A stretch of DNA of 33,185 bases from an uncultured archaeon (GCA_964600195.1 CAZRIR010000001.1:1-33185), one strand, 5' to 3'; shown: positions 2,154 to 27,827, counted from the stretch's first letter. Notes: generated from the sequence alone by a model not told the origin. Numbers and translations: made by a program.

Positions 2154-4037
2154 TTATAGGAGATATTTAAAATCAATAGTTCCACCCTCAATTTCTTTAG
2201 ACACGTAATTAGGATGTCTTTTATTTATAATGTGCATCATTGCCCTGTTCTCAAGCAAGACTGTTCCTGAAAAATAGGTGTAATTCAATTCTTTTGCGAT
2301 GATCTCGAGATAATCGAGTAAGTAACGTGCAATATTATTGCCTCTAAATTTTTCATCTACAACAAGAGCGATTTCCGCGGTTGAGGGATCCCCTGTTTTG
2401 AAAAATCCTGCCGAGGCAATTAGTTTCTTTTCACCATCTATTTCATATTCTCCCACTAATATCATGTTTGTGGCATAATCTATACTTAAGAGGGGTTGGA
2501 CCCGCTTATGTGAAAATGAGGACGTATACGTGAAGAATCGGAGGTATCTATCTCGAGTATCCATTGAATAATAGAGTTCTTGTAACATTCTTTCATCCGT
2601 TAGCTTGACAGGTCTTATTTGAATGATTTTACCATCCGAGAGTTTCAATTTTTTCTCGTATTGTTCTGGATAAAGGCTGATTCTTCCTTCTACAGATTTT
2701 GGTAATTCTTGATCGGAGTACACGTAATTCCATTTTTTAGCGTATTCTAATAATTCCTCCCGAAAATCAGGATGGGCGATATTTATCATTTGTAATACCC
2801 GTTCTCTTATGCTCTTCCCAAATAAATCCGCGATTCCATATTCTGTTACTACATAATGAACATCCCCTCTAGTAATTACTACTCCTGAACCATTTTGGAG
2901 ATAAGGAACAATGCGCGATACGACAGTTCCATCATTCAAGGTTGCCGTGCTCGGAAGAACAGTTATTGGTTTTCCCCCATCTGATCGCCCAGCACCTCTT
3001 ATAAAATCTACCTGGCCTCCAATACCGCTATAAAATAAAGGCCCTAGGGAATCGGCATTAACTTGTCCTGTTAAATCAACCGTGAGAGCTGCATTAATTG
3101 CGATTTGCTTCTTATTCTGACTTATGATATAAGGATCATTACAATAGTTACATGGATAGAATTCCACCATGGGATTTCTATCTATAAAATCATACAACTT
3201 TCTTGAACCCATTACAAAAGAGCAAATGATTTTACCAGGATGAAGTGTCTTTTTTTCACATGTAACTACACCTTCATTTACTAAATCTACAATTCCATCA
3301 GAAAATACTTCACTATGGATGCCTAAATCTTTTTTATCCAATAATTCACTTGCGATTACATTGGGAATAATTCCTATTCCCGTTTGAATTGTAGACTCAT
3401 CCTCAATGAGAGAAGCCACAAATTTGCCTACTTTTTTTGCGATTTCATTTGGTTTACCATATTTAAACTCTACAATGTCATGTTTAGTATTTATATATGC
3501 ATCGATATCGTCCATGTGGATGAGGGAATCACCTAAAGTATGAGGCATTTTAGGATTTATTTCTGCGACCACGTGTTCCACTGATTCTGCGATAGGTTTT
3601 GCGATATCAACATTAATTCCATAACTACAATACCCATCATTATCGGGAGGACTTAGTTGTAAAAGGGCAGTTTTTACATGCATTCTTCCCCTCTTGATAA
3701 ATCGAGGAATATCTGAAAGTAACATTGGAGTGTAATCCGCCATTCCTTTTTGAATTGGCTCTCTTAGATTATCTCCTATGAAAAATGTATTGTGGCGTAA
3801 TAAATCTTCTTTTCCGCCTAGTGATTTATAATAATCCAAGTCAGACAAGTTTACGAGATGCAATATTTGTGTATCAGGTAGCCGAGGACTGAGTTCAATG
3901 AGTTTTTTAACAAGATCTACTGGTTCTGAACATCCGGATCCAATAAATACTCTGTCCCCAGGTTCAATATATTTCATTATGGCATCATCAATATTTACTT
4001 CTTTATCTTTATATCTCATTAAATTCTCGTTTGGCAA
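2154..4037 (-). CDS. Acetyl-CoA hydrolase/CoA-transferase family domain fused to a C-terminal GNAT acetyltransferase domain
   Basis: 627 aa. The N-terminal ~440 aa resemble 4-hydroxybutyrate/acetyl-CoA transferases (GIGGQVDF, SGCSEP). The C-terminal ~170 aa (IRPVKLTDERMLQELYY...FRGNNIARYLL) look like GNAT. TTG start is preceded by AGGTGA. Confidence 0.8.
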   Translation of the reverse strand: MPNENLMRYKDKEVNIDDAIMKYIEPGDRVFIGSGCSEPVDLVKKLIELSPRLPDTQILHLVNLSDLDYYKSLGGKEDLLRHNTFFIGDNLREPIQKGMADYTPMLLSDIPRFIKRGRMHVKTALLQLSPPDNDGYCSYGINVDIAKPIAESVEHVVAEINPKMPHTLGDSLIHMDDIDAYINTKHDIVEFKYGKPNEIAKKVGKFVASLIEDESTIQTGIGIIPNVIASELLDKKDLGIHSEVFSDGIVDLVNEGVVTCEKKTLHPGKIICSFVMGSRKLYDFIDRNPMVEFYPCNYCNDPYIISQNKKQIAINAALTVDLTGQVNADSLGPLFYSGIGGQVDFIRGAGRSDGGKPITVLPSTATLNDGTVVSRIVPYLQNGSGVVITRGDVHYVVTEYGIADLFGKSIRERVLQMINIAHPDFREELLEYAKKWNYVYSDQELPKSVEGRISLYPEQYEKKLKLSDGKIIQIRPVKLTDERMLQELYYSMDTRDRYLRFFTYTSSFSHKRVQPLLSIDYATNMILVGEYEIDGEKKLIASAGFFKTGDPSTAEIALVVDEKFRGNNIARYLLDYLEIIAKELNYTYFSGTVLLENRAMMHIINKRHPNYVSKEIEGGTIDFKYLL

Positions 4038-4118
4038 AGAATATCACCTTGTATTTATAAAAAATATTAAACAATAAATATATAATTAATAGTAAAATAT
4101 TTAAAAAAAAAGTATAGA

Positions 4119-5328: not shown

Positions 5329-6204
5329 TTAGAATTTTATTTTATGAGTCATTTTATAGGTATCAATAAAACTAGAAACGTGTAATTGAGGATAAACTCC
5401 CTCTATTGTCTTTATTTTGGTATTAATGAACTTCCATAATTCTTTTTCATTTTTCGAAACAATTTGAACGACAATATCATGATCCCCTGTTGTTGCTGCA
5501 ACTAATTGTACATCATCAAAAGAAGCGATTATATTGGCTACTGTTTCTATTTTGATGGGATCTATAGATAAACCCAATAATGCTAACGTTTTAAATCCCA
5601 CATGAAAAGGGTTAACTTGAGCATAAAATCCTTTAATAGCACCATCTTTCTGTAATTTCTGAACTCTGTTATGAATTGTGCTGGCTGCTAACCCGATTTT
5701 ATCGCTTAGTTCATTATAAGAAACTCTACAATTTTCTTGTAAGATATTTAAAATTTCTTTATCTTTTTCATCTAATGGTGAAGATTCAGTTGTTTTTGTT
5801 GTTTTTTTTATTTCTGTTTTAAACCGTTCAATGGAATAAAGGATGGAACGCATTAATAACGAAGAATTTAAATCTCCTTTTACTAGGTAGTCTTGAGCTC
5901 CTTTTTTAAGAGAATCTAAAGCCATTTCTTTCTCATCTAATCCTGTTAAAATGATAATTGGGATATTTTCATTAATTTTTAATATCGATTCAAGTGTCTT
6001 TTTTCCCTCACTATCAGGGAGATTAAGATCTAAAAGCAATATGTCAAAATGATCATTTTGTATTGCATCTAACCCATCAGAAAGTCGAGGGTGAGATTCC
6101 AATTCATAATATAAATCTTTTGACGTTTTTAATAATTCTTCTATCAAACGCACGTCGACTGGATTATCTTCTATTAAAAGAATACTGATTTTATTATTTA
6201 TCAT
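5329..6204 (-). CDS. Response-regulator receiver domain fused to an Lrp/AsnC HTH plus RAM domain
   Basis: N terminus ILLIEDNPVDVRLI...DILLLDLNLPDSEG...IIILTG is CheY-like. C terminus LDEKDKEILNILQENCRVSYNELSDKIGLAASTIHNRVQKLQKDGAIKGF followed by an AsnC-type ligand-binding (RAM) domain. Confidence 0.85.
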   Translation of the reverse strand: MINNKISILLIEDNPVDVRLIEELLKTSKDLYYELESHPRLSDGLDAIQNDHFDILLLDLNLPDSEGKKTLESILKINENIPIIILTGLDEKEMALDSLKKGAQDYLVKGDLNSSLLMRSILYSIERFKTEIKKTTKTTESSPLDEKDKEILNILQENCRVSYNELSDKIGLAASTIHNRVQKLQKDGAIKGFYAQVNPFHVGFKTLALLGLSIDPIKIETVANIIASFDDVQLVAATTGDHDIVVQIVSKNEKELWKFINTKIKTIEGVYPQLHVSSFIDTYKMTHKIKF

Positions 6205-6533
6205 TGTTATCTTACAAACACACTTTTTTTAAACTACCTAGGTAAAATCAGAATGATTTTTCATTCTATGTTATATTATATGAAAGTTAAATAAATGCCT
6301 TTCGGTCATTTGCAGTTTTTATTGAAAATTATTCGATATTAGATCAATAACACAGAAACTAAGTTGTAATCATTCGATATTTTTCTTTTGAAATTGATAA
6401 TTACAAAAATTTTTTAGGCAAATCAATTGAAGAGCAAGCTGCTTCAATGGAGGAAAGACAGGTCAAATAAATTAACTTGGTGTAGTGGCTTTAAAATTGA
6501 AAGAAAAGCTGCTAAAAAAGAGATTTAAACAAA

Positions 6534-7001
6534 TTATTCCCTATTATCAGGTAGAATTACGATTGAAAACCAGAAATTTCCAATACTTTTTACTATTTTT
6601 TCAAATTCAATAATATCTACGGGTTTTTTGATATAACAATTAGCATGAAGGTTATATGTTTTCAAAAGGTCTTCTTCCGCGTCGGAAATGCTCAAAATCA
6701 CTACGGGAATTCGCCTTAAATCGGGATCATTCTTTATTTCACTTAAAACTTCAAATCCATTTTTTTTTGGTAAATTTAAATCAAGTAAAATAAGATCTGG
6801 TTTAGATTTAACCTTATAATTCCCTTCTTTTCTAAGAAAGCGAATTGCTTCTATACCATCATTTACTACATTTAGGTTATTTGCAATTTTACTATTTTTA
6901 ATTGCAACTTGAGTTAACCGAATATCGGCGGGGTTATCTTCTACAAGTAAAATTTCAATTAATCTTGCTTTTAGATTGCTATTCATGTGTATCGAGGGCA
7001 T
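6534..7001 (-). CDS. Single-domain response regulator (CheY-like receiver)
   Basis: LLVEDNPADIRL, DLILLDLNLPKKNG, PVVILSIS and YIKKP are the receiver acidic pocket, phospho-Asp, Ser/Thr and Lys positions. Confidence 0.9.
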   Translation of the reverse strand: MPSIHMNSNLKARLIEILLVEDNPADIRLTQVAIKNSKIANNLNVVNDGIEAIRFLRKEGNYKVKSKPDLILLDLNLPKKNGFEVLSEIKNDPDLRRIPVVILSISDAEEDLLKTYNLHANCYIKKPVDIIEFEKIVKSIGNFWFSIVILPDNRE

Positions 7002-7058
7002 CTTTAGCTGTATATAATTATAAATATATTTTATCTAATTTTAATTTTTTAGTCTATC

Positions 7059-8117
7059 CTATTCGGAGATTGGGATTGAAAAGTAAAAGATCGAACCTTT
7101 TCCCATTTCAGATTTAAGCCATATTTTACCTCCATATCTCTCAACTATTTTTTTACAAATCGCTAAACCAACTCCGGATCCTGGAAATTCACTTCGAGTA
7201 TGTAAGCGTTGAAAAATTTTAAAAATTCGGTCATAATATTCCTCTTCAATACCAATACCATTGTCTTGGACTGAAAAAATCCATTCTGATTTGGTTTGAT
7301 TGGCCCCCACATGGATTTGAGGGGATTTTTGAGACACAAATTTTATTGCATTTCCAATTAGATTTTGAAATAATTGTATTATTTGAGATTTATCGACTTT
7401 TAATTCAGGTAATGGATCATTTGTGATATGTGCATCCGATTCTTCAATCGCTTCTTTTAGATTGAGTTTAACTTCTTTTAATACTTGTTCAAAATCTGTA
7501 ATTTTTAATGGTTTTTGATGAGTCGTGATTCTCGAATAATCTAAAAGGTCTCTGACCAGTTTTCTTAATCTTATTCCTCCATCTAAGATAAACGAAAGAA
7601 ATTCCTTACCTTCAGAGTCTAATTTATCAGCATGATGTTCCTCTAATAATTGTGAAAAACTTATGATTGCCCTCAGAGGTTCTTGTAAATCATGGGATGC
7701 GATATAGGCAAATTCCTGCAGTTCCATATTTGATCGTTTTAATTCTTTTAAAATATGTTTAGTTTTTTCTTCTGCCTTCAATAAATTCTCACTTAAAAAA
7801 GCAACGACAATCCCCATTATGAGTAAAAAAATAGCTCGTAAAAAATTTTCGATAATATTAAAATCAACAATATTTCCTCCATTAAAAAGAGGTAAAATGA
7901 TAATTGACAATGAAAGGATTAATGGCACAATTAAACCTTTTCTTTTCCACCAAAGACAAGACAAGATTATGGGTATGTAAAAAAAATGAGAATATACAAT
8001 CTCAATCTTTAGGATAAAAATAAAATAAATTTGTATGACAAATGATATTATGGTTAATATAATGATAATTGCTTTTTCTTCGTTTTCTTTGATCTTTACT
8101 CTAATAATATTCACCAA
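7059..8117 (-). CDS. Membrane-bound sensor histidine kinase (HisKA + HATPase_c)
   Basis: About 4 N-terminal TM helices, H-box FAYIASHDLQEPLR, N-box QNLIGNAIKF, G1 VQDNGIGI and G2 GSGVGLAICKKIV. Start is TTG 8117 or GTG 8114. Confidence 0.9.
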   Translation of the reverse strand: MVNIIRVKIKENEEKAIIIILTIISFVIQIYFIFILKIEIVYSHFFYIPIILSCLWWKRKGLIVPLILSLSIIILPLFNGGNIVDFNIIENFLRAIFLLIMGIVVAFLSENLLKAEEKTKHILKELKRSNMELQEFAYIASHDLQEPLRAIISFSQLLEEHHADKLDSEGKEFLSFILDGGIRLRKLVRDLLDYSRITTHQKPLKITDFEQVLKEVKLNLKEAIEESDAHITNDPLPELKVDKSQIIQLFQNLIGNAIKFVSQKSPQIHVGANQTKSEWIFSVQDNGIGIEEEYYDRIFKIFQRLHTRSEFPGSGVGLAICKKIVERYGGKIWLKSEMGKGSIFYFSIPISE

Positions 8118-8795: not shown

Positions 8796-9461
8796 ATGAC
8801 CATAATTACAACAAAAAAACCTTTTGAAGAAATTCTTGGAGCAATAAAAGATTTTAAGAAGATTACCATTGTTTCATGTAATTCTTGTGCGGCCATGTGT
8901 CAAACCGGGGGTGAAGAAGGAGCGAAAGAAATGGCAGAAAAATTAGAAGGCCAAGGATTTAGCGTTGTTTCAGTCATAGTTCCTGAAGAAGTATGTGATA
9001 ATCGAGTCATGCTCAAGGATTTCAGGAAAATTGATGAGGATTTAAATAATACGGATGCAATATTAACTCTAAGTTGTGGACTTGGAGTTGCTAGTATAAT
9101 AAATACGCTAGAAAAGAATCATCCTAACATTCCCGTATTCATCGGCACCAATACCGAGTTTATGGGGATGACAGAAAGAATTGGAAGGTTCTACATGCGA
9201 TGTAGGGGATGTGGCGACTGCTTGTTGAATGAAACGGGGGGAATTTGCCCCATAACCACCTGTGCCAAGTCACTCATGAATGGTCCTTGTGGGGGAATGG
9301 TAAAGGGCAAGTGTGAAGTGGGGAATTATGAACGAGATTGTGGATGGGTTTTAATTTATGAACGATTGAAACAGCTCGGAAGGTTGGATTTATTCTCAAA
9401 ATTGAGAGATCCTGTTGATTGGAGCGAATCAGGACATCAAAGAGAGGTTGTTTGGAGGTAG
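8796..9461 (+). CDS. metV: MetV-like protein (methylene-tetrahydrofolate reductase C-terminal domain, Cys-rich)
   Basis: C-terminal CRGCGDCLLNETGGICPITTCAKSLMNGPCGG...CEVG...CGW matches the MTHFR_C zinc/Fe-S domain. It lies immediately upstream of metF with a 6-nt gap. Confidence 0.75.
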   Translation: MTIITTKKPFEEILGAIKDFKKITIVSCNSCAAMCQTGGEEGAKEMAEKLEGQGFSVVSVIVPEEVCDNRVMLKDFRKIDEDLNNTDAILTLSCGLGVASIINTLEKNHPNIPVFIGTNTEFMGMTERIGRFYMRCRGCGDCLLNETGGICPITTCAKSLMNGPCGGMVKGKCEVGNYERDCGWVLIYERLKQLGRLDLFSKLRDPVDWSESGHQREVVWR

Positions 9462-9467
9462 AGGAAA

Positions 9468-10397
9468 ATGGCAGAAAAAAAAGTATTTTCAAAATTAGGA
9501 GAGGTACTTGCAAAAGGTGAGTTCGTTCTTACAGGCGAGCTCGAGCCTGAGAAGACGTGCGATCTTTCACACCTGGTTCAGGAAGCCAAGGAAATGGCCC
9601 CCTATGTCGTTGCAGCTAACGTCACTGACAGTCCATTGGGAATTGTGACCATCAACAGCCTTGCCGCTTGCGCAATCGTTCAAAGAGATGCCGGCTTGGA
9701 ATGCATCTGGCAACTAACCGTGAGAGATGTGAACAAGTTAGGGATCGCAGGAATGATAATGGGTGCGGAGGCGCTTGGCATTCATAACGTGCTTTCTTTG
9801 ACCGGCGATCATCCCAACATGGGAGACATGCCGGAATCAAAACCCGTCTTTGATCTCGACTCTGCCACGTTAGTAAAGCTCGTAAGAGAAATGGTAGATA
9901 CTGGAAGCATCAATAAGAAAGAAATCGAGCATCCACCCAAGCTACACGTGGGTGGGGCTGCAAATCCCAATTCCGATCCCATGGAAGCGGAAGCACTAAA
10001 GATAGGTCGTAAAGCTGAAGCCGGAGCGGAATTCATACAAACCCAAGTCGTTTACGACTTGGATAAAACCATAGAATTCTTGCAGGCGATCCAGAAATAC
10101 AAAGTTCCCGTCTTGCTTGGATTGTTTCCCATGAAAAGTTATGCCATTGCCAAGGGTTTTGACATGTTTGTTCCAGGAGTGGACGTGCCAAAGGACATCC
10201 TTGCCAAATGGAAGGGCATCAAGACAGACATTACGGACAAGAAGGATCAAAATGAAGCTTACGATCAAGCTAATTATGATTTTTTCAAACCTTTTGTAAC
10301 CGAACTGAAAGCGAAAAAGTTACTTGCAGGAGTGCACTGCATGGCAGTACATTATCCACGAATTTTCCCCAGACTAGTAGAAGTTATTAAAGGATGA
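9468..10397 (+). CDS. metF: 5,10-methylenetetrahydrofolate reductase (MetF family)
   Basis: 309 aa with an MTHFR TIM-barrel signature (LTGELEPEK..., VTDSPLG, QLTVRD, LSLTGDHP, FIQTQVVYD). It is markedly more GC-rich than its flanks. Confidence 0.9.
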   Translation: MAEKKVFSKLGEVLAKGEFVLTGELEPEKTCDLSHLVQEAKEMAPYVVAANVTDSPLGIVTINSLAACAIVQRDAGLECIWQLTVRDVNKLGIAGMIMGAEALGIHNVLSLTGDHPNMGDMPESKPVFDLDSATLVKLVREMVDTGSINKKEIEHPPKLHVGGAANPNSDPMEAEALKIGRKAEAGAEFIQTQVVYDLDKTIEFLQAIQKYKVPVLLGLFPMKSYAIAKGFDMFVPGVDVPKDILAKWKGIKTDITDKKDQNEAYDQANYDFFKPFVTELKAKKLLAGVHCMAVHYPRIFPRLVEVIKG

Positions 10398-11129: not shown

Positions 11130-11672
11130 TTAAATTTTAGAATTATTCATGAATTCAAGTTTTTCTGTAAGTTTTGTTGTTTCCAAAAGTTTTTTTACTT
11201 CAGCAATATCAGGTTGCATAATTTTTGGGAGACCCAACTGCTCACGCCTTTTTTCTATAGCAGGTTGCAAGGGAATTGCTTTTGCATTTTTAAAAATATT
11301 CATTGCTTGGAATGAATAATAATCGGGAGCCTCCCCTCTTTCAACACTCATGTTTTTTAAAATCGTGAAGATCTCGGTTAATTCTACTTTTTGCGGACAA
11401 ATCTCATCACAGGTATCACACGCGGTACACCCCCAAATATTAAAATTATCACCTACTCCAAATATCTTATGTTTCAAGCCTAATAATGCATCAAGTATTA
11501 AACGTCTTGGATTATATCTCCCCCCAGTTACCTGTGCCACGGGACAAGCCACAGAACAAGTAGCACATTGATAACAATAAGATAAAGTTGAACCTATATC
11601 ATTTTCAAGGATCTGATTTCTAAATTTAAAATCTATTGTAGCTATTTGATTTTCACCTAATCGATATCTGTT
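11130..11672 (-). CDS. hdrC: Heterodisulfide reductase subunit C-like 2x[4Fe-4S] protein
   Basis: CYQCATCSVACP (hand-translated upstream of the track start) and CTACDTCDEICP motifs, with RYNPRRLI between them as in HdrC. The open frame reaches 11672, but there is no ATG/GTG/TTG upstream of the first Cys motif. The track's GTG 11552 lies inside that motif. Confidence 0.7.
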   Translation of the reverse strand, partial: NRYRLGENQIATIDFKFRNQILENDIGSTLSYCYQCATCSVACPVAQVTGGRYNPRRLILDALLGLKHKIFGVGDNFNIWGCTACDTCDEICPQKVELTEIFTILKNMSVERGEAPDYYSFQAMNIFKNAKAIPLQPAIEKRREQLGLPKIMQPDIAEVKKLLETTKLTEKLEFMNNSKI

Positions 11673-12705: not shown

Positions 12706-12871
12706 GAAACTAATTGTAAAATAATTTTTTTTAAAAAAGATAAAAAACGTTCATTATAAGAGATTTTTAAAACTTTAGCTCAGGAAAAAATGGATTAAGA
12801 AAGAATTTCGAGATAAATAAGAAATTATAAAAATCAGGAGGGATTAAACAAAAAAAATTGGTGATCATGCA

Positions 12872-14818
12872 TTGGTTGTGAATACAAGTGATGGAAGTCG
12901 AATTTTCGTTGCAATTTGTCAATGAGGTTTAAATATTGCCGAAATTATTGATTGTAAGGAACTAGCAGGTTATTCAAAAACTCTTCCTAATGTCGTTAGT
13001 AGCGGAAACTATGTCAGTCTCTGTACTACAGCAGGAGCGTCATTCATCCAAGAAAACATGGAATCGAGCAAGGCAAATCGATTGATTATTGCGGCTTGAA
13101 CTCCAAAAACTCATGAGCCCGTATTTAAAACCATTCTTAAAAATACAGGGATTGATCCATCTTATTTGGAATTTGTAAATATAAGAGAACATTCATCATT
13201 CGTTCATAGAAACAATAAAAAAGGTGCCTTTCTTGTTGCTAAGGATTTGATAAGAGCTTCAGTTGCCAGAGCGACAAATTTAGAAAAAATAGAGATAAAA
13301 CAAGTTGATCTTACTAAAAAAACGCTAATAATAGGAGCAGGTGTTGCAGGCTTATCAGCGGCACTCGATTTAGCAGAATTAGGATATGATGTGTACATGG
13401 TTGAAAAAAGACCCAGCATTGGTGGTTTAATGGCCAAGCTTGATAGAACTTTTCCAACTGATGATTGCAGTATTTGAATATTAGGTCCTATCATGCTTAA
13501 AGTAGCGAATGTTCCCAATATTTACATATATACCTTCTCGGAAGTCGAAGATATCTCAGGATTTATAGGTAATTTTAAGGTCATTATTAGAAAAAAAGCA
13601 AGATATGTAACGGAAGATTGTAATGGTTGTGGAGCCTGCGTGGAAGCGTGTCCTGCATATGGTTATGATGAATTTAATGAGTGTTTAAATTCTAGAAAAG
13701 CAATATATACATATTTTGCCCAAGCAGTACCATCAATTGCACAAATTGACATGGAACGTTGCATTCAATGCGAAATCTGTAAAGATGTCTGTGAATTGAA
13801 TGCCATAGATTTTACTCAAAAAGATAGAATTGAGAATGCAAAAGTCGGTTCAATAATAGTAGCTACGGGTCTTGAAGTTCATAAGGGAAAAGAATATGGA
13901 AGGGGAAAATACGAAAATATAATCACTCAACTTGAATTGGAGAGGATTCTAGCTCCAAATGGTCCAACGGTAGGACATTTAGCAAGGCCTTCAGATGGAA
14001 AGCGACCTAAAAAGATATTATTCATTAATTGTGCCGGTTCAAGGGATCGAAATACCCATCCCTATTGTAGCGTTGTATGCTGTAATTTAACAGTTAAAAA
14101 TTCAAAGCTTATAAAATCTGAATACCCTGATACTGAGATTGTTGTAAGCTTCATTGACATGCGATGTGCAGGAAAAGATTATGAAGAATATTATACTCGT
14201 GCAAGAGATAGTGGTATCATTTTTCTTAGAGGTCATATTGGAAACATTACAGAAGATCCTAAATCAAAGGATCTTATCGTTCAAATCGAAGCGTTTACCA
14301 TGGATCGTTTCTTAGAGATGGAATTTGATCTTATTGTCTTATCATCAGCATCAATTCCATCGAAACATGCTAAAAAAATTGAAAAATTGTTAGGATTGGA
14401 GACGAGTCGAGATGGATTCTTTAAAGAAATGCATTCCCGTTTGGATGCAATTGATACAAAAATCCCAGGAATATGCATAGCAGGAGCAGCACAAGGGCCA
14501 AAATCGATACCTGATGCAATAACTCAAGGAAGAGCTGCAGCAGCATCATTAGCAAGTATAATGCACAAGGACACATATGAAATTCTTTTAGTGAGAGGAT
14601 ATATTGATAATGATTCATGCTCAAAATGTGGATTATGTCAATTGAATTGTCCTTATAATGCCATACAGATATCTAAAAGTCATGCGGAAGTCAATGAAAT
14701 TCTCTGTAAAGGATGCGGCACTTGTTTAGCAAATTGTCCATCCGAAGCAATTACCTTAAAATATTATAGAGAATCTCAATATGAAAATCAAATTGATTCA
14801 ATATTGTATGAATATTAA
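12872..14818 (+). CDS. hdrA: Heterodisulfide reductase subunit A with three in-frame UGA (selenocysteine) codons at 12923-12925, 13097-13099 and 13475-13477
   Basis: One continuous frame joins a hand-translated N-terminal part (SRIFVAICQ-U-GLNI...RLIIAA-U-TPKTHEP) with track ORFs 13166..13477 and 13493..14818. The only interruptions are TGA, each aligned to a Cys of the paralogue at 22176..24722. Also present: FAD motif IIGAGVAGLSAA and ferredoxin motifs CNGCGACVEACP, CIQCEICKDVC, CSKCGLCQLNCP, CKGCGTCLANCP. Start is uncertain (TTG 12872, GTG 12878, or near-cognate ATT 12857 after AGGAGGG). Confidence 0.85.
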
Positions 14819-14868
14819 AATTGAGTATAATCTAACAGTGAATAAATAATGCTAAATTGACAATCATT

Positions 14869-14942
14869 TAAACCCGTAAGAATGACTTAAATGAAAAAAT
14901 CGTGATCATTTGAGGACTCGCCCCCGCAAGGGAACGGGTTGT
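14869..14942 (+). promoter_or_regulatory. Candidate SECIS stem-loop in the hdrA 3' UTR
   Basis: AACCCGT (14871-14877) pairs perfectly with ACGGGTT (14934-14940). The interior holds CCC-GCAA-GGG (14923-14932) and AAUGA/UCAUU complements. It is the only GC-rich island in this AT-rich spacer and begins about 50 nt after the stop. Confidence 0.45.
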
Positions 14943-15085
14943 ATTAATATGATTTTAATATTAACTGAAATCCAATAAATGTTAATAGAAAGAATTTTAA
15001 AAATTTTCAAAAAAAAATTCACTATTTTTAATCGCTAATCATTAGAAAAAGAAATAAAATATATTTTTGAGTTTATTCTTTTATT

Positions 15086-16765
15086 TTAATCCCATTTGCC
15101 TTTAACTCGAGCATTTTTTATATCGTTGTCCAATCTTCTTTGTAAAATGATATAATCAGGTCTATTATTTTTTGTCAGAGGAAATTCATCAAGAAATACA
15201 ACTAATGAAGGTCTTTTATAAGATGCCATTCCTTTACAATGCTCATCGATTTCTGAAAGAGTTAAATCTGCATTATCTTTAATTTTTATATAAGCAACAA
15301 TGCCCTCAGTAAATATGGTGTGTTTAGCACCTAATACTCCAACATTCTCAACTTCGGGAATTTCCGAAATGAAATCCTCGATTTCTGGTTGAAATACTCT
15401 ATAACCCTTGGGATTAATCATGTATTTTTTTCTACCTGCCAGATGGATTCCTTTTTCATCTTTATAACCCATATCTCCCGTGTATAATATGGCATCGTAA
15501 GAGAGCACTGCTCTTGTCGCAACTTCATAATTTAAATATCCAAAAAAAGTTTGAGAACCCTCGAAACATATTTCTCCAATTTCACCATCTGGGAGGACAT
15601 CTCCTGCAAACCCGTTTTCATTCATTTTAGCCCTTATAGTTGCGGGAAATATTGCAAAAGGATGACCAAGACCATTCAATATCTCTTCGATAGTCGCCTC
15701 CTCAGGAGTATATGTGCATAAACCTGAAGTTTCAGTGAGGCCTAATCCAGTACCAATTCTAGGAGCCATTTTTATAAGTTTTTCTAAGAATCCCATATCT
15801 ACGGATTGCCCACTATAGATTGCATGTTTTAAAGAACTTAAATCAAAATTATTATAATCATGCAAATTCCATTCCATTGAATATGATGCGGGTATTTGAC
15901 CTAAACATGTAATCTTATAGTCTTGAATTGCTAATAATGATTTTTCTGCTTCAAACCGATGTAATATGATTGCGGTTCCTCCAACATAGAGGATCGTCAT
16001 CAATTGTTCTGTAGATCCTCCAATAAATGCAAAAGGCATGTTTACCATCATTCGATCATCTCCGGTAATATTAAATGCTTTTGCCAAGCACATGTTCTGG
16101 CAAGTAATACTTAAATTGGTCAACATCGTAGGTTTTGGAAATGCTGTAGTTCCCATCGTGAATATTAATAAGATCGGATCTTTTTCACCAACTTTCTCAC
16201 ATTCATTTTCAAATTCTTTTAGAAGATTCTTATTGTTTAGTGCTTCTTTATATTCATGCTCAGCTTCTTTAATTAGCTTGTGTCCGTTTATCAATCCATC
16301 CGTATAATTTTCATTCATGTATCCAAATTGGACTATATAATTCAACCAGGGATAATTTTGATGTATGACAGAACCAATTATATTATAATTCTGATATTGT
16401 GTTTTACCTAAATGGCAGTACATTTTTATCCTATTTCTCAATAAGGAAAACGATATCATGATTTCAGGAGGTTTTAAGCTTAGGTCTAATGGACACCACA
16501 TTATTCCAAGTTTAACGCAAGCATAACCAATGATGAAGTGTTCATACGTATTTGGAAGACTTGCCACACATATATCTCCCTTTCTTAATCCCATGTTGTA
16601 TAATTTAAAAGCCATCATGTTAATCGCATCTGAAAATTCTCTATAAGATACTTCAGCTTTGGTATTGAAAAAGATCATTGCGTCATGATTAGGCTTATTT
16701 TCAGTCCATTTTTCTATGGCACCAACAAGGGTATGAGGATATTTTTCAAATTCTTCCCAAGACAT
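15086..16765 (-). CDS. AMP-dependent synthetase/ligase (acyl- or aryl-CoA synthetase family)
   Basis: 559 aa with a divergent AMP-binding P-loop (FTMGTTAFPKPTML), YTGDMGY, and a C-terminal KRPSLVVFLDEFPLTKNNR. Confidence 0.85.
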   Translation of the reverse strand: MSWEEFEKYPHTLVGAIEKWTENKPNHDAMIFFNTKAEVSYREFSDAINMMAFKLYNMGLRKGDICVASLPNTYEHFIIGYACVKLGIMWCPLDLSLKPPEIMISFSLLRNRIKMYCHLGKTQYQNYNIIGSVIHQNYPWLNYIVQFGYMNENYTDGLINGHKLIKEAEHEYKEALNNKNLLKEFENECEKVGEKDPILLIFTMGTTAFPKPTMLTNLSITCQNMCLAKAFNITGDDRMMVNMPFAFIGGSTEQLMTILYVGGTAIILHRFEAEKSLLAIQDYKITCLGQIPASYSMEWNLHDYNNFDLSSLKHAIYSGQSVDMGFLEKLIKMAPRIGTGLGLTETSGLCTYTPEEATIEEILNGLGHPFAIFPATIRAKMNENGFAGDVLPDGEIGEICFEGSQTFFGYLNYEVATRAVLSYDAILYTGDMGYKDEKGIHLAGRKKYMINPKGYRVFQPEIEDFISEIPEVENVGVLGAKHTIFTEGIVAYIKIKDNADLTLSEIDEHCKGMASYKRPSLVVFLDEFPLTKNNRPDYIILQRRLDNDIKNARVKGKWD

Positions 16766-22046: not shown

Positions 22047-22175
22047 ACCTTCGTTCTATTATAAATATGACATTTCATATTTGGTAGAAAATTTTTCAAA
22101 ATTCTTGATTTTCAAATTTTTTTTATCAAGGTGATTAACTATTCATTATTAAATGGTGGAAGGGATGGAAAACAA

Positions 22176-24722
22176 ATGGACATTTATTCAATATTATCTC
22201 ATGAGTTTAGAAGGAATATTTTGTTCCTGCTTGAAAAAGAAGGATACATTCCCTATACTGATTTAATGGATAAGCTAGGTTTAGACCAAACAGGGCAGCT
22301 CAATTTTCATTTAAGAAAACTTGGTTCTCTTATTGGAAAAGACAAAAAATCATATTTTTTAACTGAGGATGGTAAAAGAATTTTAAAAATACTCAGCATC
22401 AATAAAAGAATCTTATCAGGAGAAGAAGTAGAATATATCAATTCCAAAGGGAGTGAAATAAATAGAATAGGAGTAATTATTTGTAATTGTAATACTGAAA
22501 TCTCCAACACGATTGATATAAACGCACTAGAAAAATACATAAACAGGTTGCCAAATGTTGTTTCAGTAAAGATTTTTGAAAATTTATGTCAAGAGAAAAA
22601 TTTAGAAAAAATATCCGATTGGGTTAAAGAAAATTTTCTAAATAAAGTTGTCATTGCTGCTTGTTCTCCAAAATCGCATCAACTTGTCTTTGAACGAATT
22701 TTTGAGGAAGTAATAGATAAGTCAAACATTGAAATTGCTAATATAAGAGAACAATGTTGCTGGGTTCATCAAGGAAACGATAAACAAATTGAATCCTCTC
22801 AAGTATTGAAAAAGGCTCAATTACTAATCGAAGCTGCAGTTGAATGTTTATACCTTCAGAAAGAAGTAAAAGTTAAGAGGGTCGAAGTAGAAAAAAGTTG
22901 TGCAATATTGGGAGGGGGTATTGCGGGCATGACACTAGCATTAAATTTAGCTAGAGCCGGAATTAAAGTCTACCTAATCGAAAAAAGTCCTACTTTAGGT
23001 GGTAAGGTGGCACGATGGCATAGAATCCATAAAATGGGTGATTGTTCAATTTGTTTCATTTCAGAATTAATAGGTGAAATTGTAAAAGAAAAAAATATAG
23101 AAATTTTAACAAATTGCGAGATAACGAGCGTTTCGGGAGAAGTAGGTAATTTTTCAATAAATCTAATTAAAAAACCTCGATATATTGATGAGAAAAAATG
23201 TACTGGTTGCATGCAATGCATTGATGTATGCAGCATGGAAAAACCGAATCAATATGAGTTCAATCTCGTTAATCGGAAGATTATTTTCCTTCCTTTCCAA
23301 AACTCATATCCCTACACGCCTATTATTGAAGAAGAAGACATAAAGAATTGTCTCAATTGTAGAATTTGCGAAAGAGCATGCATGAATAATGCAATTGACT
23401 TAAATCAAAAACCAGAGGCAATTAAAATAAAAGCTGGTGTAAAGGCCATTGCTATAGGTGCCGATCTATATTCTGATCTAGAGGAATATCACCATGACCC
23501 TAAAAAAAACATCATCACTTCGGTTGAATTTGAAAGAATTTTATCATCAGATGGTCTTACTGAGGGGAAGATTTTAAAGCTTTCCGATAATAAACCGCCA
23601 AAAACAATATCAATTATTCAGGATATTGGACCTAATCGAGATCATTTAGGCCTTACGGATATAATTGCTCAAAAATATTTAAATTGTATTAGTGTTAAAA
23701 ATCCAGATAGTCAGGTAAAAGTATTTTACACCATGAATAACTTGTATCATAATCATGAAGCGATCATCAAATCTACAGATCCGAGATTCTATTATGTCAA
23801 TCAACTTGAAATAAAAAGAGAAAATGATGAAAACATCATTATCGCAGATAATAAAGAGTATCCAAGTGATTTGATTGTACTAAATCTTGATTTGATACCT
23901 AATAAGGATTTAAAAAACCTTAGAAAGACTTTAGATTTTACTCTAGATGATAACGGATTCATGAGTGAAGATACGTTAGCTTCTGGTATATTTGGTGTCG
24001 GAACAATCCTTGGTCCTTACAATTATCAATCAACAATAAATAGTGCTAATAAAGTTGCACTAGAAATCATATCACTCCTTTCAAATGATTATTTGATCTC
24101 GGAATTTACGGGAGTGGAAATCGACCATAAAAGATGTGGTCTATGTTCTTTATGCGTGAATGCTTGCCCTTATAATGCCATTACTATTGAAGATGACAAA
24201 ATCAATATTGATAAGTTTAAATGCAAGGGTTGTGGTACTTGCGTGAGTGTTTGTCCTACAAATGCGATTGAAATGAATATAGATACTGATGAAAAAATAC
24301 TTAGAAAAATAGATATTTATTCGGGGTTTAATGCCACGCCCAAAATACTAGCTTTTTGCTGTAAATCTTGTGGATATGCCGCAGCTGATGATGCCGGACT
24401 CAAAAAACAGTTTTATAAACCCAATATCTTTATCATTAGAGTTCCCTGTACGGGGCGTATTGATACACATTTTATAACAAGAGCTTTCGAAAAGGGATTT
24501 CAAGGTGTCATGATTATTGGATGCAGGAAAGATGCTTGTAGATATATCGATGGTATTCAAAAAGTACAGAAAAAAGTTCAACTTTTGAAAAAAGTCTTGG
24601 GTCCACGACTAAGCAGGAAAATCATCATTAAAAATCTAAATGCTGTCGAAGGAATCAAGTTTTCAAATTTTGTAAATAGATTTTATCATATATTAAAGGA
24701 GGAATACGAATTTGCGACTTAA
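22176..24722 (+). CDS. hdrA: Fusion protein: ArsR-like winged HTH + HdrA (Cys type) + C-terminal MvhD domain
   Basis: N terminus SILSHEFRRNILFLLEKEGYIPYTDLMDKLGLDQTGQLNFHLRKLGSLIGKDKKSYFLTEDGKRIL is a wHTH. HdrA motifs: VIICNCNTEI, IAACSPKSHQ, REQCCWVH, GGGIAGM, GDCSICF and four CxxCxxCxxxC(P) motifs. C terminus ILAFCCKSCGYAAAD...RVPCTGRID...IIGCRKDACRY is MvhD/FlpD-like. The track start is GTG 22131; ATG 22176 sits after a GGAAGGGATGG purine run. Confidence 0.85.
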   Translation: MDIYSILSHEFRRNILFLLEKEGYIPYTDLMDKLGLDQTGQLNFHLRKLGSLIGKDKKSYFLTEDGKRILKILSINKRILSGEEVEYINSKGSEINRIGVIICNCNTEISNTIDINALEKYINRLPNVVSVKIFENLCQEKNLEKISDWVKENFLNKVVIAACSPKSHQLVFERIFEEVIDKSNIEIANIREQCCWVHQGNDKQIESSQVLKKAQLLIEAAVECLYLQKEVKVKRVEVEKSCAILGGGIAGMTLALNLARAGIKVYLIEKSPTLGGKVARWHRIHKMGDCSICFISELIGEIVKEKNIEILTNCEITSVSGEVGNFSINLIKKPRYIDEKKCTGCMQCIDVCSMEKPNQYEFNLVNRKIIFLPFQNSYPYTPIIEEEDIKNCLNCRICERACMNNAIDLNQKPEAIKIKAGVKAIAIGADLYSDLEEYHHDPKKNIITSVEFERILSSDGLTEGKILKLSDNKPPKTISIIQDIGPNRDHLGLTDIIAQKYLNCISVKNPDSQVKVFYTMNNLYHNHEAIIKSTDPRFYYVNQLEIKRENDENIIIADNKEYPSDLIVLNLDLIPNKDLKNLRKTLDFTLDDNGFMSEDTLASGIFGVGTILGPYNYQSTINSANKVALEIISLLSNDYLISEFTGVEIDHKRCGLCSLCVNACPYNAITIEDDKINIDKFKCKGCGTCVSVCPTNAIEMNIDTDEKILRKIDIYSGFNATPKILAFCCKSCGYAAADDAGLKKQFYKPNIFIIRVPCTGRIDTHFITRAFEKGFQGVMIIGCRKDACRYIDGIQKVQKKVQLLKKVLGPRLSRKIIIKNLNAVEGIKFSNFVNRFYHILKEEYEFAT

Positions 24723-25474: not shown

Positions 25475-26773
25475 ATGCAAAAAGTTGTAGAAGTATGCAC
25501 GAGAGTGGAGGGTCATGGAAGTTTAGATATATTTATAAAGGATGATAATGTATCTCACGTAGAATTCAAGATAGGTCCGTATAGAGATTTTGAAAACATG
25601 TTAATTGGAAAAAAAATTGAAGATGTTCCCAGAATAATTTCAAGAGTGTGTGGCTTGTGTCATGCTTCTCAAAGTATAGTCAGCTGTAAGACTATTGAAA
25701 CAATGTATAATATTAAACCTCACATGCAATCTATTATTGTAAGACGTCTTTTAATGACAGGTGAACTTATAAAATCCCATTTGATGCATTATTTCTTTCA
25801 ATCATTTCCAGATCTTCTAGAAATTTTTAATATTAATGAAAAAGTTCTAAATTTAAATGATCTATTGAAATATAATAGCAATTTAACATCAAATATCTTC
25901 GATCTGATAAAAGTTGGAAATGAAATAAATAATCTTTTTGGAGGTCGTTCCGTGCATTTAATAACACCATTACCCGGAGGAATTATTTTTAGGCCTTCAC
26001 AAAAATCTATTAAAATTGCTCAAAAACTATTCGAAAAAGCCTCATTTTTACTAGAAATGATTATCGAAGATTTTTCCAATATTTTTTCAAATTTTACTCC
26101 TCCTGAAGATTATTCACTTTCTAAAGCATACTTTTTAGCATTAAACAATAACAAGGTCTATGATCGTTATGAAGGGGTTCTCACTATAAAAAAAAATTCT
26201 AATTACAATGATTTTCACGAAACAGAATACAAATCTTATTTCAATAAAGATCTAAATCTTCATGGAATTGATTTTGTTAACCAAAACGGTGAAAATTGCT
26301 TAGTTGGACCACTTGCAAGAAATAATATAGTTGAAAATTATGGAGTTGAGCAAATAACATCATATCTCAACTTATTTCAAAAATCTTGGAAAAATAACCT
26401 CTTGTATGCCAATTTTTTAAGATTAATTGAGGTATATTGTGAAGTAATCAAGTCATTAGATTTATTGAATGACCAGGTAATAAAGAATGAATACCCCCTT
26501 CCAGAATTAGTAAATATCAAAAATAATATTGGTATAGCCGTTGTTGATGCACCTAGAGGAACATTAATCCACCAATATCGCGTAAATGATAGAAAAACTG
26601 TTGAAGAAGCAAAACTTTTCATTGCTACAGAGATGAATCTTCCGATTATCAATCAAATGATCACGGATTATGCCAAAAAACTCTATTTGAAGAAAGACAT
26701 ATCATTTGTCAAGAAAAATGTTCAAAAGATGATTAGAGCATTCGATCCATGCATAGCATGTGCAACACATTAA
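25475..26773 (+). CDS. mvhA: [NiFe] hydrogenase large subunit, Mvh type
   Basis: N-terminal RVEGHG and RVCGLC, C-terminal DPCIACATH nickel-ligand motif. The ORF stops immediately after that His. Confidence 0.9.
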   Translation: MQKVVEVCTRVEGHGSLDIFIKDDNVSHVEFKIGPYRDFENMLIGKKIEDVPRIISRVCGLCHASQSIVSCKTIETMYNIKPHMQSIIVRRLLMTGELIKSHLMHYFFQSFPDLLEIFNINEKVLNLNDLLKYNSNLTSNIFDLIKVGNEINNLFGGRSVHLITPLPGGIIFRPSQKSIKIAQKLFEKASFLLEMIIEDFSNIFSNFTPPEDYSLSKAYFLALNNNKVYDRYEGVLTIKKNSNYNDFHETEYKSYFNKDLNLHGIDFVNQNGENCLVGPLARNNIVENYGVEQITSYLNLFQKSWKNNLLYANFLRLIEVYCEVIKSLDLLNDQVIKNEYPLPELVNIKNNIGIAVVDAPRGTLIHQYRVNDRKTVEEAKLFIATEMNLPIINQMITDYAKKLYLKKDISFVKKNVQKMIRAFDPCIACATH

Positions 26774-26804
26774 GCATCAATTAAAAAATAAGGAGATTGG
26801 TTCT

Positions 26805-27827
26805 ATGAAAATACTCACTGAAAATGAAAGAAGAATCATCCAAGCAGAACAATTATGCGAAGTTTTTTTATTATATTTTGATGAAAAATTAGGTCATATA
26901 CCAATTTTAGTGAGTCCTGAGGATGTCATGAAAAAAAATAAAGAAACGATGCAAATTCTCCGTATTCATTCCATTTGGTTCTTAGATCTAAGTGATAAGA
27001 CATCTCTTGATCGCGTGGATTTAGAATATGGAGGGAAAATGTACTTTGCAAAAAAATTTCTAGTTCCTTCTTTTAGAAATAAAAGAAGAGCTGGTTCAGA
27101 AGAGGTTAAATTTGAAACGATAGTCTTAATTTTAGCACTCCCCATAGAAATGGATATTTTCGGGGGAGCTTTACTCGGGGAAATGGCTGAGAGAATCGCC
27201 AAACACTTTAAATTTTATCTTTCTGACGTGATTGAAGCAGAAATAGAAAAATTGAATGTAATTATAAAGCCAAACGCTAAATATTTAATTGAAAAGGGAG
27301 AAAAAATTAAAAAAAGAATAAGGATGCTCATTAAAAACACCTGCTCCCAATATTTTCAATCCGTAATAAAAAAAACAGATACGACCATCTTAAAAATTCA
27401 AAAAGCAATTTCCTACTTGTCGTTAAAAGGGGTGCCAGTGAGTTATATAGTTAGCAATAACAAAAATATTGGATTTTCTAACATAAAATTATTTGATCAA
27501 AAGACTACCCATCATCCTAACAGTAAAAATGAAATCCCTTTTCAAATATCTAATATCAATACCATTGAAAATAGTCAAGAGGTCGAAATATCCGTTAAAA
27601 ATCAAACTAACAAAGAATTTAAAGATCTATTGATAAAAATAACTTCATTATACGAGTTTTTTGAACAAGTTATTCTTTACGATAAAATTGAACTTTGGTT
27701 TCCAGAGGAAGAAATTCTTTTCATCCTTCCTGAGATGATGATGGAAAATGAATATATTTTATATTTATTAGAGCAAAATCAAAAAAAAGTCATTTTTCAA
27801 AAAAAAATTAAACTACTTAAAGAATAA
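26805..27827 (+). CDS. Hypothetical protein (340 aa), last gene of the hdrA-mvhDGA operon
   Basis: ATG 26805 lies 9 nt after AAGGAG, 31 nt downstream of mvhA. It has no Cys clusters. The N-terminal ~150 aa show an alternating beta/alpha pattern that could be longin/roadblock-like; this is a guess by eye. Confidence 0.55.
   Translation: MKILTENERRIIQAEQLCEVFLLYFDEKLGHIPILVSPEDVMKKNKETMQILRIHSIWFLDLSDKTSLDRVDLEYGGKMYFAKKFLVPSFRNKRRAGSEEVKFETIVLILALPIEMDIFGGALLGEMAERIAKHFKFYLSDVIEAEIEKLNVIIKPNAKYLIEKGEKIKKRIRMLIKNTCSQYFQSVIKKTDTTILKIQKAISYLSLKGVPVSYIVSNNKNIGFSNIKLFDQKTTHHPNSKNEIPFQISNINTIENSQEVEISVKNQTNKEFKDLLIKITSLYEFFEQVILYDKIELWFPEEEILFILPEMMMENEYILYLLEQNQKKVIFQKKIKLLKE

Follow-up and report, generated by a model that had tools for sequence, protein, structure and literature searches.

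We describe here a gene for the heterodisulfide reductase subunit HdrA (12872..14818, plus strand) in a stretch of 33,185 nucleotides (nt) from an uncultured archaeon (GCA_964600195.1 CAZRIR010000001.1:1-33185), hereafter referred to as the window. The gene has a TTG start, a TAA stop and 648 codons, and it contains three in-frame UGA codons (TGA in the DNA). It is very probably a functional, multi-UGA hdrA of a Lokiarchaeon, in which the three UGA codons are decoded as selenocysteine (Sec) by means of a single Sec insertion sequence (SECIS) of the lokiSECIS type in the 3' untranslated region (UTR). A triple-Sec HdrA had been proposed in the original prediction on this DNA, and the proposal is supported by the cysteine columns on which the UGA codons lie, by TGA codons in orthologs, by the SECIS element in the 3' UTR, by a stop codon other than UGA and by the Lokiarchaeal host. 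The accompanying view, that a single Sec is usual for HdrA and three are out of the ordinary, is outdated. Multi-Sec HdrA with up to four Sec residues at five positions has been described in Lokiarchaea (Mariotti et al., 2016; PMC4989117), HdrA is among the most abundant of 1439 catalogued Asgard selenoproteins (Huang et al., 2024; PMC11227280), and the pattern found here recurs in other loci. Hence, the finding as stated goes little beyond the knowledge of 2016 and its novelty is low; modest differences from the published picture concern gene organization, SECIS architecture and the mapping of Sec residues to a cofactor. For annotation, it would mean that the gene is entered as one 648-residue selenoprotein and not as fragments or a pseudogene.

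The hdrA reading frame and its UGA codons

Translation of the hdrA frame (coordinate mod 3 = 2) is uninterrupted between a TAA at 12845-47 and the terminal TAA at 14816-18, except for TGA codons at 12923-25, 13097-99 and 13475-77. TAA, TAG and frameshifts are absent from this frame, in agreement with the earlier claim of a roughly 648-codon frame broken only by these TGA codons, and the two alternative frames over this stretch have 45 and 70 stop codons. Translation most probably begins at the TTG at 12872, which is aligned to an ATG in the orthologous locus L001 and to a TTG in L002. From this codon the product has 648 residues with the Sec positions 18, 76 and 202, and the gene has no TGG codon. 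Inspection by eye revealed a purine-rich AGGAGG motif on the plus strand (12837..12842) about 30 nt 5' of the start, which has counterparts (GAGGG and GGTGG) at equal spacing in L001 and L002. The mechanical list of open reading frames (ORFs) breaks hdrA into 13166..13477 and 13493..14818, the same two HdrA fragments that had been read from the ORF track before; that gene callers split this gene, as had been expected, is seen in this list as well as in the records of the orthologs. A scan of the whole window for TAA/TAG-delimited frames with in-frame TGA between long segments returned hdrA and only two others, 31622-32269 (plus strand) and 9616-10230 (minus strand), which are antisense to CdhA and MetF and were therefore discarded.

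Judged by its sequence, the read-through product is HdrA over its full length; HdrA is the subunit of heterodisulfide-reductase-type complexes that performs flavin-based electron bifurcation. It matches the solved HdrA chains 9sfi_A (E 6e-194, residues 10-645) and 5odc_A (E 9e-190, residues 9-644). A Pfam domain search, run with Cys placed at the TGA codons, identified NAD_binding_8/Pyr_redox_2 at 150-226 and Fer4 families at 243-310 and 577-630. The HdrA architecture is complete: besides a Rossmann domain for flavin adenine dinucleotide (FAD) of the thioredoxin-reductase-like type, the protein has one ferredoxin domain as an insertion and another, with 2x[4Fe-4S], at the C-terminus. All 16 ferredoxin cysteines are present, and likewise the C387/C399/C403/C404 motif. 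C16, U18, C51, U76, C199 and U202, three of which are encoded by UGA, fill the four conserved Cys columns in the N-terminal Fe-S domain and those of the CxxC pair at position 197; in the other tabulated Fe-S Cys columns, 23 in number, Cys is kept throughout.

The first two UGA codons, at 12923..12925 (Sec18, in a C-x-U-G motif) and 13097..13099 (Sec76, in an AA-U-TP motif), belong to the N-terminal Fe-S domain. The third, at 13475..13477 (Sec202, in a DCSI-U motif), is the canonical HdrA Sec site, equivalent to Cys/Sec197 of methanogen HdrA. All three align to Cys in 5odc_A and in the Cys-type paralog encoded in the window at 22131..24722, and the alignment with this paralog reproduces the pairings reported before (ICQ-U-GLNI/ICN-C-NTEI, IIAA-U-TPKTHE/VIAA-C-SPKSHQ and DDCSI-U-ILGP/GDCSI-C-FISE). 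The family alignment, a check that had been proposed with the prediction, and the two solved chains agree that the UGA codons fall on conserved HdrA Cys columns. Site 18 is Cys in bacterial and distant homologs and in the solved HdrA chains. The third TGA aligns, with an offset of 5, to the X (Sec197) deposited in Methanococcus maripaludis 9sfi_A and to Cys197 of 5odc_A.

With Lokiarchaeal HdrA.1-4 (PMC4989117) and Asgard HdrA (PMC11227280) the gene shares the family, the host phylum and the position of UGA on conserved Cys columns. Further similarities are several Sec residues including the canonical site near residue 200, a 3' lokiSECIS with AUGA/GA core, and a UAA or UAG stop, a non-UGA stop having been noted earlier for all Lokiarchaeal hdrA genes (Mariotti et al., 2016; PMC4989117). 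The Methanococcales HdrA (9SFI, PMC13518236; Cys-type 5ODC) has the same full length, domain order and Fe-S Cys pattern, with Sec202 corresponding to Sec/Cys197. However, the VhuD-associated protein of the Methanococcales has only Sec197 and a euryarchaeal-type SECIS, whereas the window gene has two more Sec codons and a eukaryote-like SECIS core. In addition, the host of the window gene is not a methanogen, and the genomic context is one of Wood-Ljungdahl and hydrogenase genes.

Conservation of the UGA codons in Asgard HdrA homologs

Orthologs (five sequences) were recovered via the contigs of database protein fragments. TGA is present at all three sites in L001 (GCA_016839425.1, 81% amino acid identity), at sites 2 and 3 in L005 (91%, truncated where its contig ends) and at site 3 in L006 (70%, also truncated). 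In L002 and L003 (82%) the order is TGA, a Cys codon (TGY) and TGA, with Sec and Cys exchanged at the second site. L007, a separate assembly record with 99.8% nucleotide identity (about 10 differences in 4,700 bases), has the same three TGA codons. Scans of genome and metagenome contigs found no further close orthologs; they returned only paralogous clades of 46-66% identity and a few distant sequences below 45%. Comparing codons 1-205 of the window gene with L001, we count 72 identical, 82 synonymously changed and 51 non-synonymously changed codons and no new stop. The synonymous excess therefore indicates that the TGA-spanning N-terminal stretch is translated and under purifying selection.

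A table of Sec sites from about 90 fetched loci extends this picture. Asgard HdrA homologs of at least 46% identity have TGA at residues 18 and 202 in all cases that cover these positions, the exceptions at the first site being L075 and L077, where the first Sec has moved from 18 to 16. At residue 76, TGA occurs in the window, L007, L001, L005, L008, L083 and L085, and Cys in L002 and most paralogs. Residue 51 is TGA in L008, L063, L066, L070-L072, L074, L076 and L078-L081. The combination of Sec at 18, 76 and 202 is also found in two other clades. L008 (2974-4953) has four Sec residues (18, 51, 76 and 202), which correspond to three of the four N-terminal-domain cysteines plus the canonical site, and L063 has an additional Sec at the ferredoxin-ligand position 303.

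In databases, many Asgard HdrA proteins appear at full length with Trp in place of Sec (CxWG, CSIWI, AAWTP, SLWTE, LNWFY), namely P0001-P0014, P0022, P0025, P0032, P0036, P0047, P0052 and P0115. In the three cases checked (L026, L033 and L067) the stored W is TGA in the DNA and genuine Trp is TGG. The stored W is a gene-caller artefact, evidently because these contigs were translated with a table in which TGA is Trp.

A lokiSECIS in a predicted three-way junction

The 3' UTR of hdrA contains a SECIS element on the plus strand (14871..14940), whose AUGA starts 64 nt past the TAA stop and which is predicted to fold as a three-way junction. Its core (14882-14916) reads AUGA-CUUAAAUGA-AAAAAUCGUGA-UCAUUUGAG-GA, with the AUGA at 14882-14885, a 9-bp stem at 14886-14894/14906-14914, the 11-nt loop AAAAAUCGUGA at 14895-14905 and the GA at 14915-14916. 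The lokiSECIS has been defined by AUGA, a 9-bp stem, an 11-nt apical loop starting with AAAAA, and GA (PMC4989117, section 11). By minimum free energy (MFE) folding and pattern search, the geometry of 14882-14916 is exactly this one, with 9 of 9 pairs. It is the sole perfect match to the lokiSECIS pattern on both strands of the window; loose criteria give 0.43 matches per shuffled window. A second lokiSECIS-like pattern at 27738-27772, with 8 of 9 pairs and an A-poor loop, was put down to chance and is missed by the covariance model; the ORF that contains it (26760-27827) has no in-frame TGA. The covariance model, for which elements of another HdrA clade alone were used, has a single match in the window, 14869-14942 (50.4 bits, E 3e-9).

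A closing helix (14871-14877/14934-14940, AACCCGU/ACGGGUU) surrounds the core together with a second hairpin at 14923-32 (CCC at 14923-25, GCAA at 14926-29, GGG at 14930-32). MFE folding, sequence by sequence, predicts the three-way junction in 43 of 51 elements, which were drawn from all clades. The closing helix differs by clade (ACCCG/CGGGU, CCGA/UCGG, UGUGUU/AACACA, ACGAAUC/GAUUCGU, CUCCC/GGGAG, UUACCC/GGGUAA). In a covariance-model alignment, which is fitted to the model and hence biased toward its structure, 95.4% of the cells are paired (36-41% in slid controls), and compensatory changes occur in 16 of 18 pairs and in all three helices. The junction is also predicted in L001 (5398-5471), L002 (2106-2179), L005 (1832-1905), L006 (1695-1765) and about 45 more loci, and the second hairpin of hdrA and vhuD lokiSECIS elements has a loop of the GCA(A) type.

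Published Asgard SECIS models consist of the core, the upper stem and the apical loop only, and the running text of the publications searched names neither a junction nor a further hairpin. Closing helix and second hairpin are thus predicted additions that are absent from the published lokiSECIS models. The element shares with lokiSECIS and eukaryotic type I SECIS the AUGA and GA that flank a 9-bp stem and the 11-nt loop starting with AAAAA, but has the two additions as well. The canonical euryarchaeal SECIS is characterized by an asymmetric GAA/A bulge that separates a long lower stem from a 3-bp G+C stem. Compared to it, the closing helix, the CCC/GGG hairpin and one unpaired 3' A are similar, whereas the 5' bulge holds the whole AUGA hairpin; the GAA of the canonical euryarchaeal element is not conserved in other clades of the Asgard element. 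In appearance, the element loosely recalls a euryarchaeal SECIS with a eukaryote-like hairpin placed in its 5' bulge. No archaeal homolog of the eukaryotic protein SBP2 is known (PMC4989117). The two additions, which current search models ignore, would bear on the origin of eukaryote-like SECIS elements and on binding that is free of SBP2.

Probable decoding of the UGA codons as Sec and alternative explanations

The host is supported by sequence comparison as a Lokiarchaeon (Promethearchaeota). The CdhA encoded on the contig groups, at 90% identity or more, with proteins of Candidatus Lokiarchaeota / Promethearchaeota, and the 34 genome matches to HdrA are nearly all Asgard metagenome-assembled genomes, mostly Promethearchaeota, the two weakest being bacterial. 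Within the window TGA serves as a normal stop in the genes for GDH, MetF and CdhA, and therefore UGA is not reassigned genome-wide. A plausible course of decoding would start from a monocistronic hdrA mRNA with the three-way-junction SECIS at its 3' end. The kink-turn hairpin with AUGA/GA would recruit a Sec elongation factor of the archaeal/eukaryotic type together with Sec-tRNASec, and the UGA codons would be recoded over distances of about 1.41, 1.79 and 1.96 kb from the SECIS. Termination would occur at UAA, the true stop, which is untouched by UGA recoding. Sec insertion itself, the factors acting in trans and what Sec contributes chemically we infer from these sequence features. Recoding of several distant UGA codons in one ORF from the 3' UTR is similar to eukaryotic selenoprotein P; however, selenoprotein P uses two SECIS elements and SBP2, the window hdrA has one SECIS, and the proteins are unrelated.

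Several observations weigh against Sec decoding of this gene. Genes for tRNA-Sec, EFSec, PSTK, SepSecS and SPS are absent from the 33-kb contig. A tRNA scan of the window returned nothing and is no evidence either way on tRNA-Sec. Rfam SECIS families have no match in the whole window at gathering thresholds, nor in 14819-15000 at E values up to 10. Hence, the element is assigned as a SECIS on the basis of covariation and of the lokiSECIS as described in the literature. The apical loop ends with GA and not with AG as in lokiSECIS and eukaryotic type I SECIS, and a G has been reported as ultraconserved at the last position. In addition, Asgard hdrA genes have been described as invariably followed by vhuD/frhD with one common SECIS downstream of vhuD (PMC4989117, PMC11227280). 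In the window no vhuD follows hdrA, a tblastn search of the window with the MvhD domain finds only a fused copy at 24336-24710, and a partner hdrB is not adjacent to hdrA.

One alternative is a pseudogene broken by nonsense codons, which would yield fragments at most, for example the 441-residue C-terminal ORF. The fragments given by gene callers and the missing Sec machinery in the window would fit such a gene. Yet each of the three interruptions is a TGA on a Cys column and never a TAA or TAG, the same TGA codons occur in orthologs of 70-91% identity, the N-terminal 205 codons have 82 synonymous to 51 non-synonymous changes, and a conserved, covarying SECIS lies 3' of the gene. We consider a pseudogene highly improbable. 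That the TGA codons are sequencing or assembly errors for TGT or TGC has in its favor that the contig is metagenome-assembled; however, L007, with about 10 differences in 4.7 kb, retains all three TGA codons, and orthologs from four other samples have TGA at the same sites, which leaves hardly any room for this explanation.

A different matter is a UGA that is translated, but as another amino acid, either in a reassigned code (Trp or Gly, codes 4/25) or by near-cognate suppression with Cys or Trp. The database homologs with W at these columns seem to speak for it, and under selenium starvation some organisms put Cys or Trp at Sec codons. But the stored W is TGA in proteins whose genuine Trp is TGG, and TGA ends GDH, MetF and CdhA at their natural ends. 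Furthermore, the columns are Cys in all Cys-type homologs and Sec in the solved Methanococcus HdrA, and a SECIS is present. Reassignment or suppression is therefore very unlikely, if slightly less so than a pseudogene, and even the three alternatives combined amount to a small residual probability. Thus, decoding of the three UGA codons as Sec is the explanation that we adopt in the following.

Proposed position of the Sec residues at or beside the N-terminal [4Fe-4S] cluster

The crystal structure of HdrABC-MvhAGD, as summarized by Chadwick et al. (2022; PMC9012536), shows an N-terminal [4Fe-4S] cluster bound by cysteines of the N-terminal domain and by Cys197 of the partner HdrA. In the cryo-electron microscopy structure from M. 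maripaludis (2026; PMC13518236), Sec197 is modeled in a Cys-Sec selenylsulfide between the N-terminal cluster and FAD. The open-access text names only Cys197 among the ligands of the N-terminal cluster. Residues 18 and 76 of the window protein are two of the four conserved N-terminal-domain cysteines, which by the alignment with 5odc_A are 11, 13, 46 and 71 in 5ODC numbering. Should the three ligands that this domain supplies all belong to these four cysteines, residue 18, residue 76 or both would have to be a ligand. The window protein would dimerize like methanogen HdrA, with Sec202 meeting the N-terminal cluster of the other subunit in the region of Sec18, Cys51 and Sec76. Under either model of Sec197, all three Sec residues would lie at or beside one cofactor, the N-terminal [4Fe-4S] cluster, which is on the low-potential path from the bifurcating FAD to ferredoxin. 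It is conceivable, and we suggest it tentatively, that this is a natural [4Fe-4S] cluster on the low-potential branch with two or three selenolate ligands, and that relatives such as L008 have three or four of them. A role as selenolate ligands contradicts Mariotti et al. (2016; PMC4989117), who stated before the structures became available that the Sec sites are not cluster ligands. Clustering of Sec on one Fe-S center would turn the question why HdrA has several Sec residues into one of how the low-potential exit of an electron-bifurcating flavoprotein is tuned.

Gene organization and neighborhood

The published multi-Sec HdrA genes of Lokiarchaea and other Asgard archaea share the SECIS of vhuD, whereas the window hdrA has its own SECIS and no vhuD. 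This stand-alone arrangement is also found in L001, L002 and L006. In the window clade (window, L001, L002, L005 and L006) the SECIS lies 52-91 nt past the hdrA stop; in a tandem clade, 62-66% identical to the window clade, it lies 440-500 nt downstream, past vhuD. The comparison suggests that a Sec-type hdrA need not be accompanied by vhuD and can have a SECIS to itself. Several other HdrA clades (L050, L088, L055, L060 and L064) also depart from the rule that hdrA shares the SECIS of vhuD. In L050 (3537-3609) and L088 (1395-1467) the SECIS is found 103 nt past hdrA, and L055 (3448-3524 and 4780-4859) and L060 (3462-3537 and 3973-4050) have the order hdrA-SECIS-vhuD-SECIS with a two-Sec vhuD (CNKUGY...IGUYEGEC). 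The next gene in the window, 268 nt from hdrA, encodes an AMP-binding protein of the acyl-CoA ligase type (15086-16765, minus strand). It is kept as the downstream neighbor in three loci (the window, L001 at 5697-7382 and L002 at 2390-4075), with a different orientation in L001.

An HdrC-like ORF (11130-11650, minus strand) is located 1.2 kb upstream of hdrA. Its first CxxCxxCxxxCP motif (YCYQCATCSVACP) precedes the first ATG, GTG or TTG, so it either has a non-canonical start or is damaged, and a hidden UGA was not found in it. The Cys-type HdrA paralog, 7 kb downstream of the Sec-type hdrA, is part of a fusion of a winged helix-turn-helix domain, HdrA and MvhD (22131-24722), which is followed by MvhG-like and MvhA genes up to 26773. 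In the fusion, the winged-helix domain (DUF7347/HTH_24) is N-terminal and the MvhD (FlpD) domain is C-terminal; a domain of the DNA-binding type is odd at this place. The large subunit of the NiFe hydrogenase (25475-26773) was considered as a candidate for a Sec-type C-terminus and rejected, since it ends with DPCIACATH and is of the Cys type. The window also encodes MetV-MetF, a methylene-tetrahydrofolate reductase pair (8796-10397), the alpha subunit of CO dehydrogenase/acetyl-CoA synthase (CdhA, 30814-33171) and a protein with an Mpt_N domain, similar to methylene-tetrahydromethanopterin (H4MPT) dehydrogenase. MetV-MetF, the HdrC-like protein, the HdrA-MvhD fusion with MvhG/MvhA, the Mpt_N protein and CdhA are candidates for the same electron-transfer network. 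The position of a Sec-type hdrA in such a Wood-Ljungdahl and hydrogenase context is reminiscent of the MetFV-HdrABC-MvhD complexes of acetogens, which are mentioned by Chadwick et al. (2022; PMC9012536).

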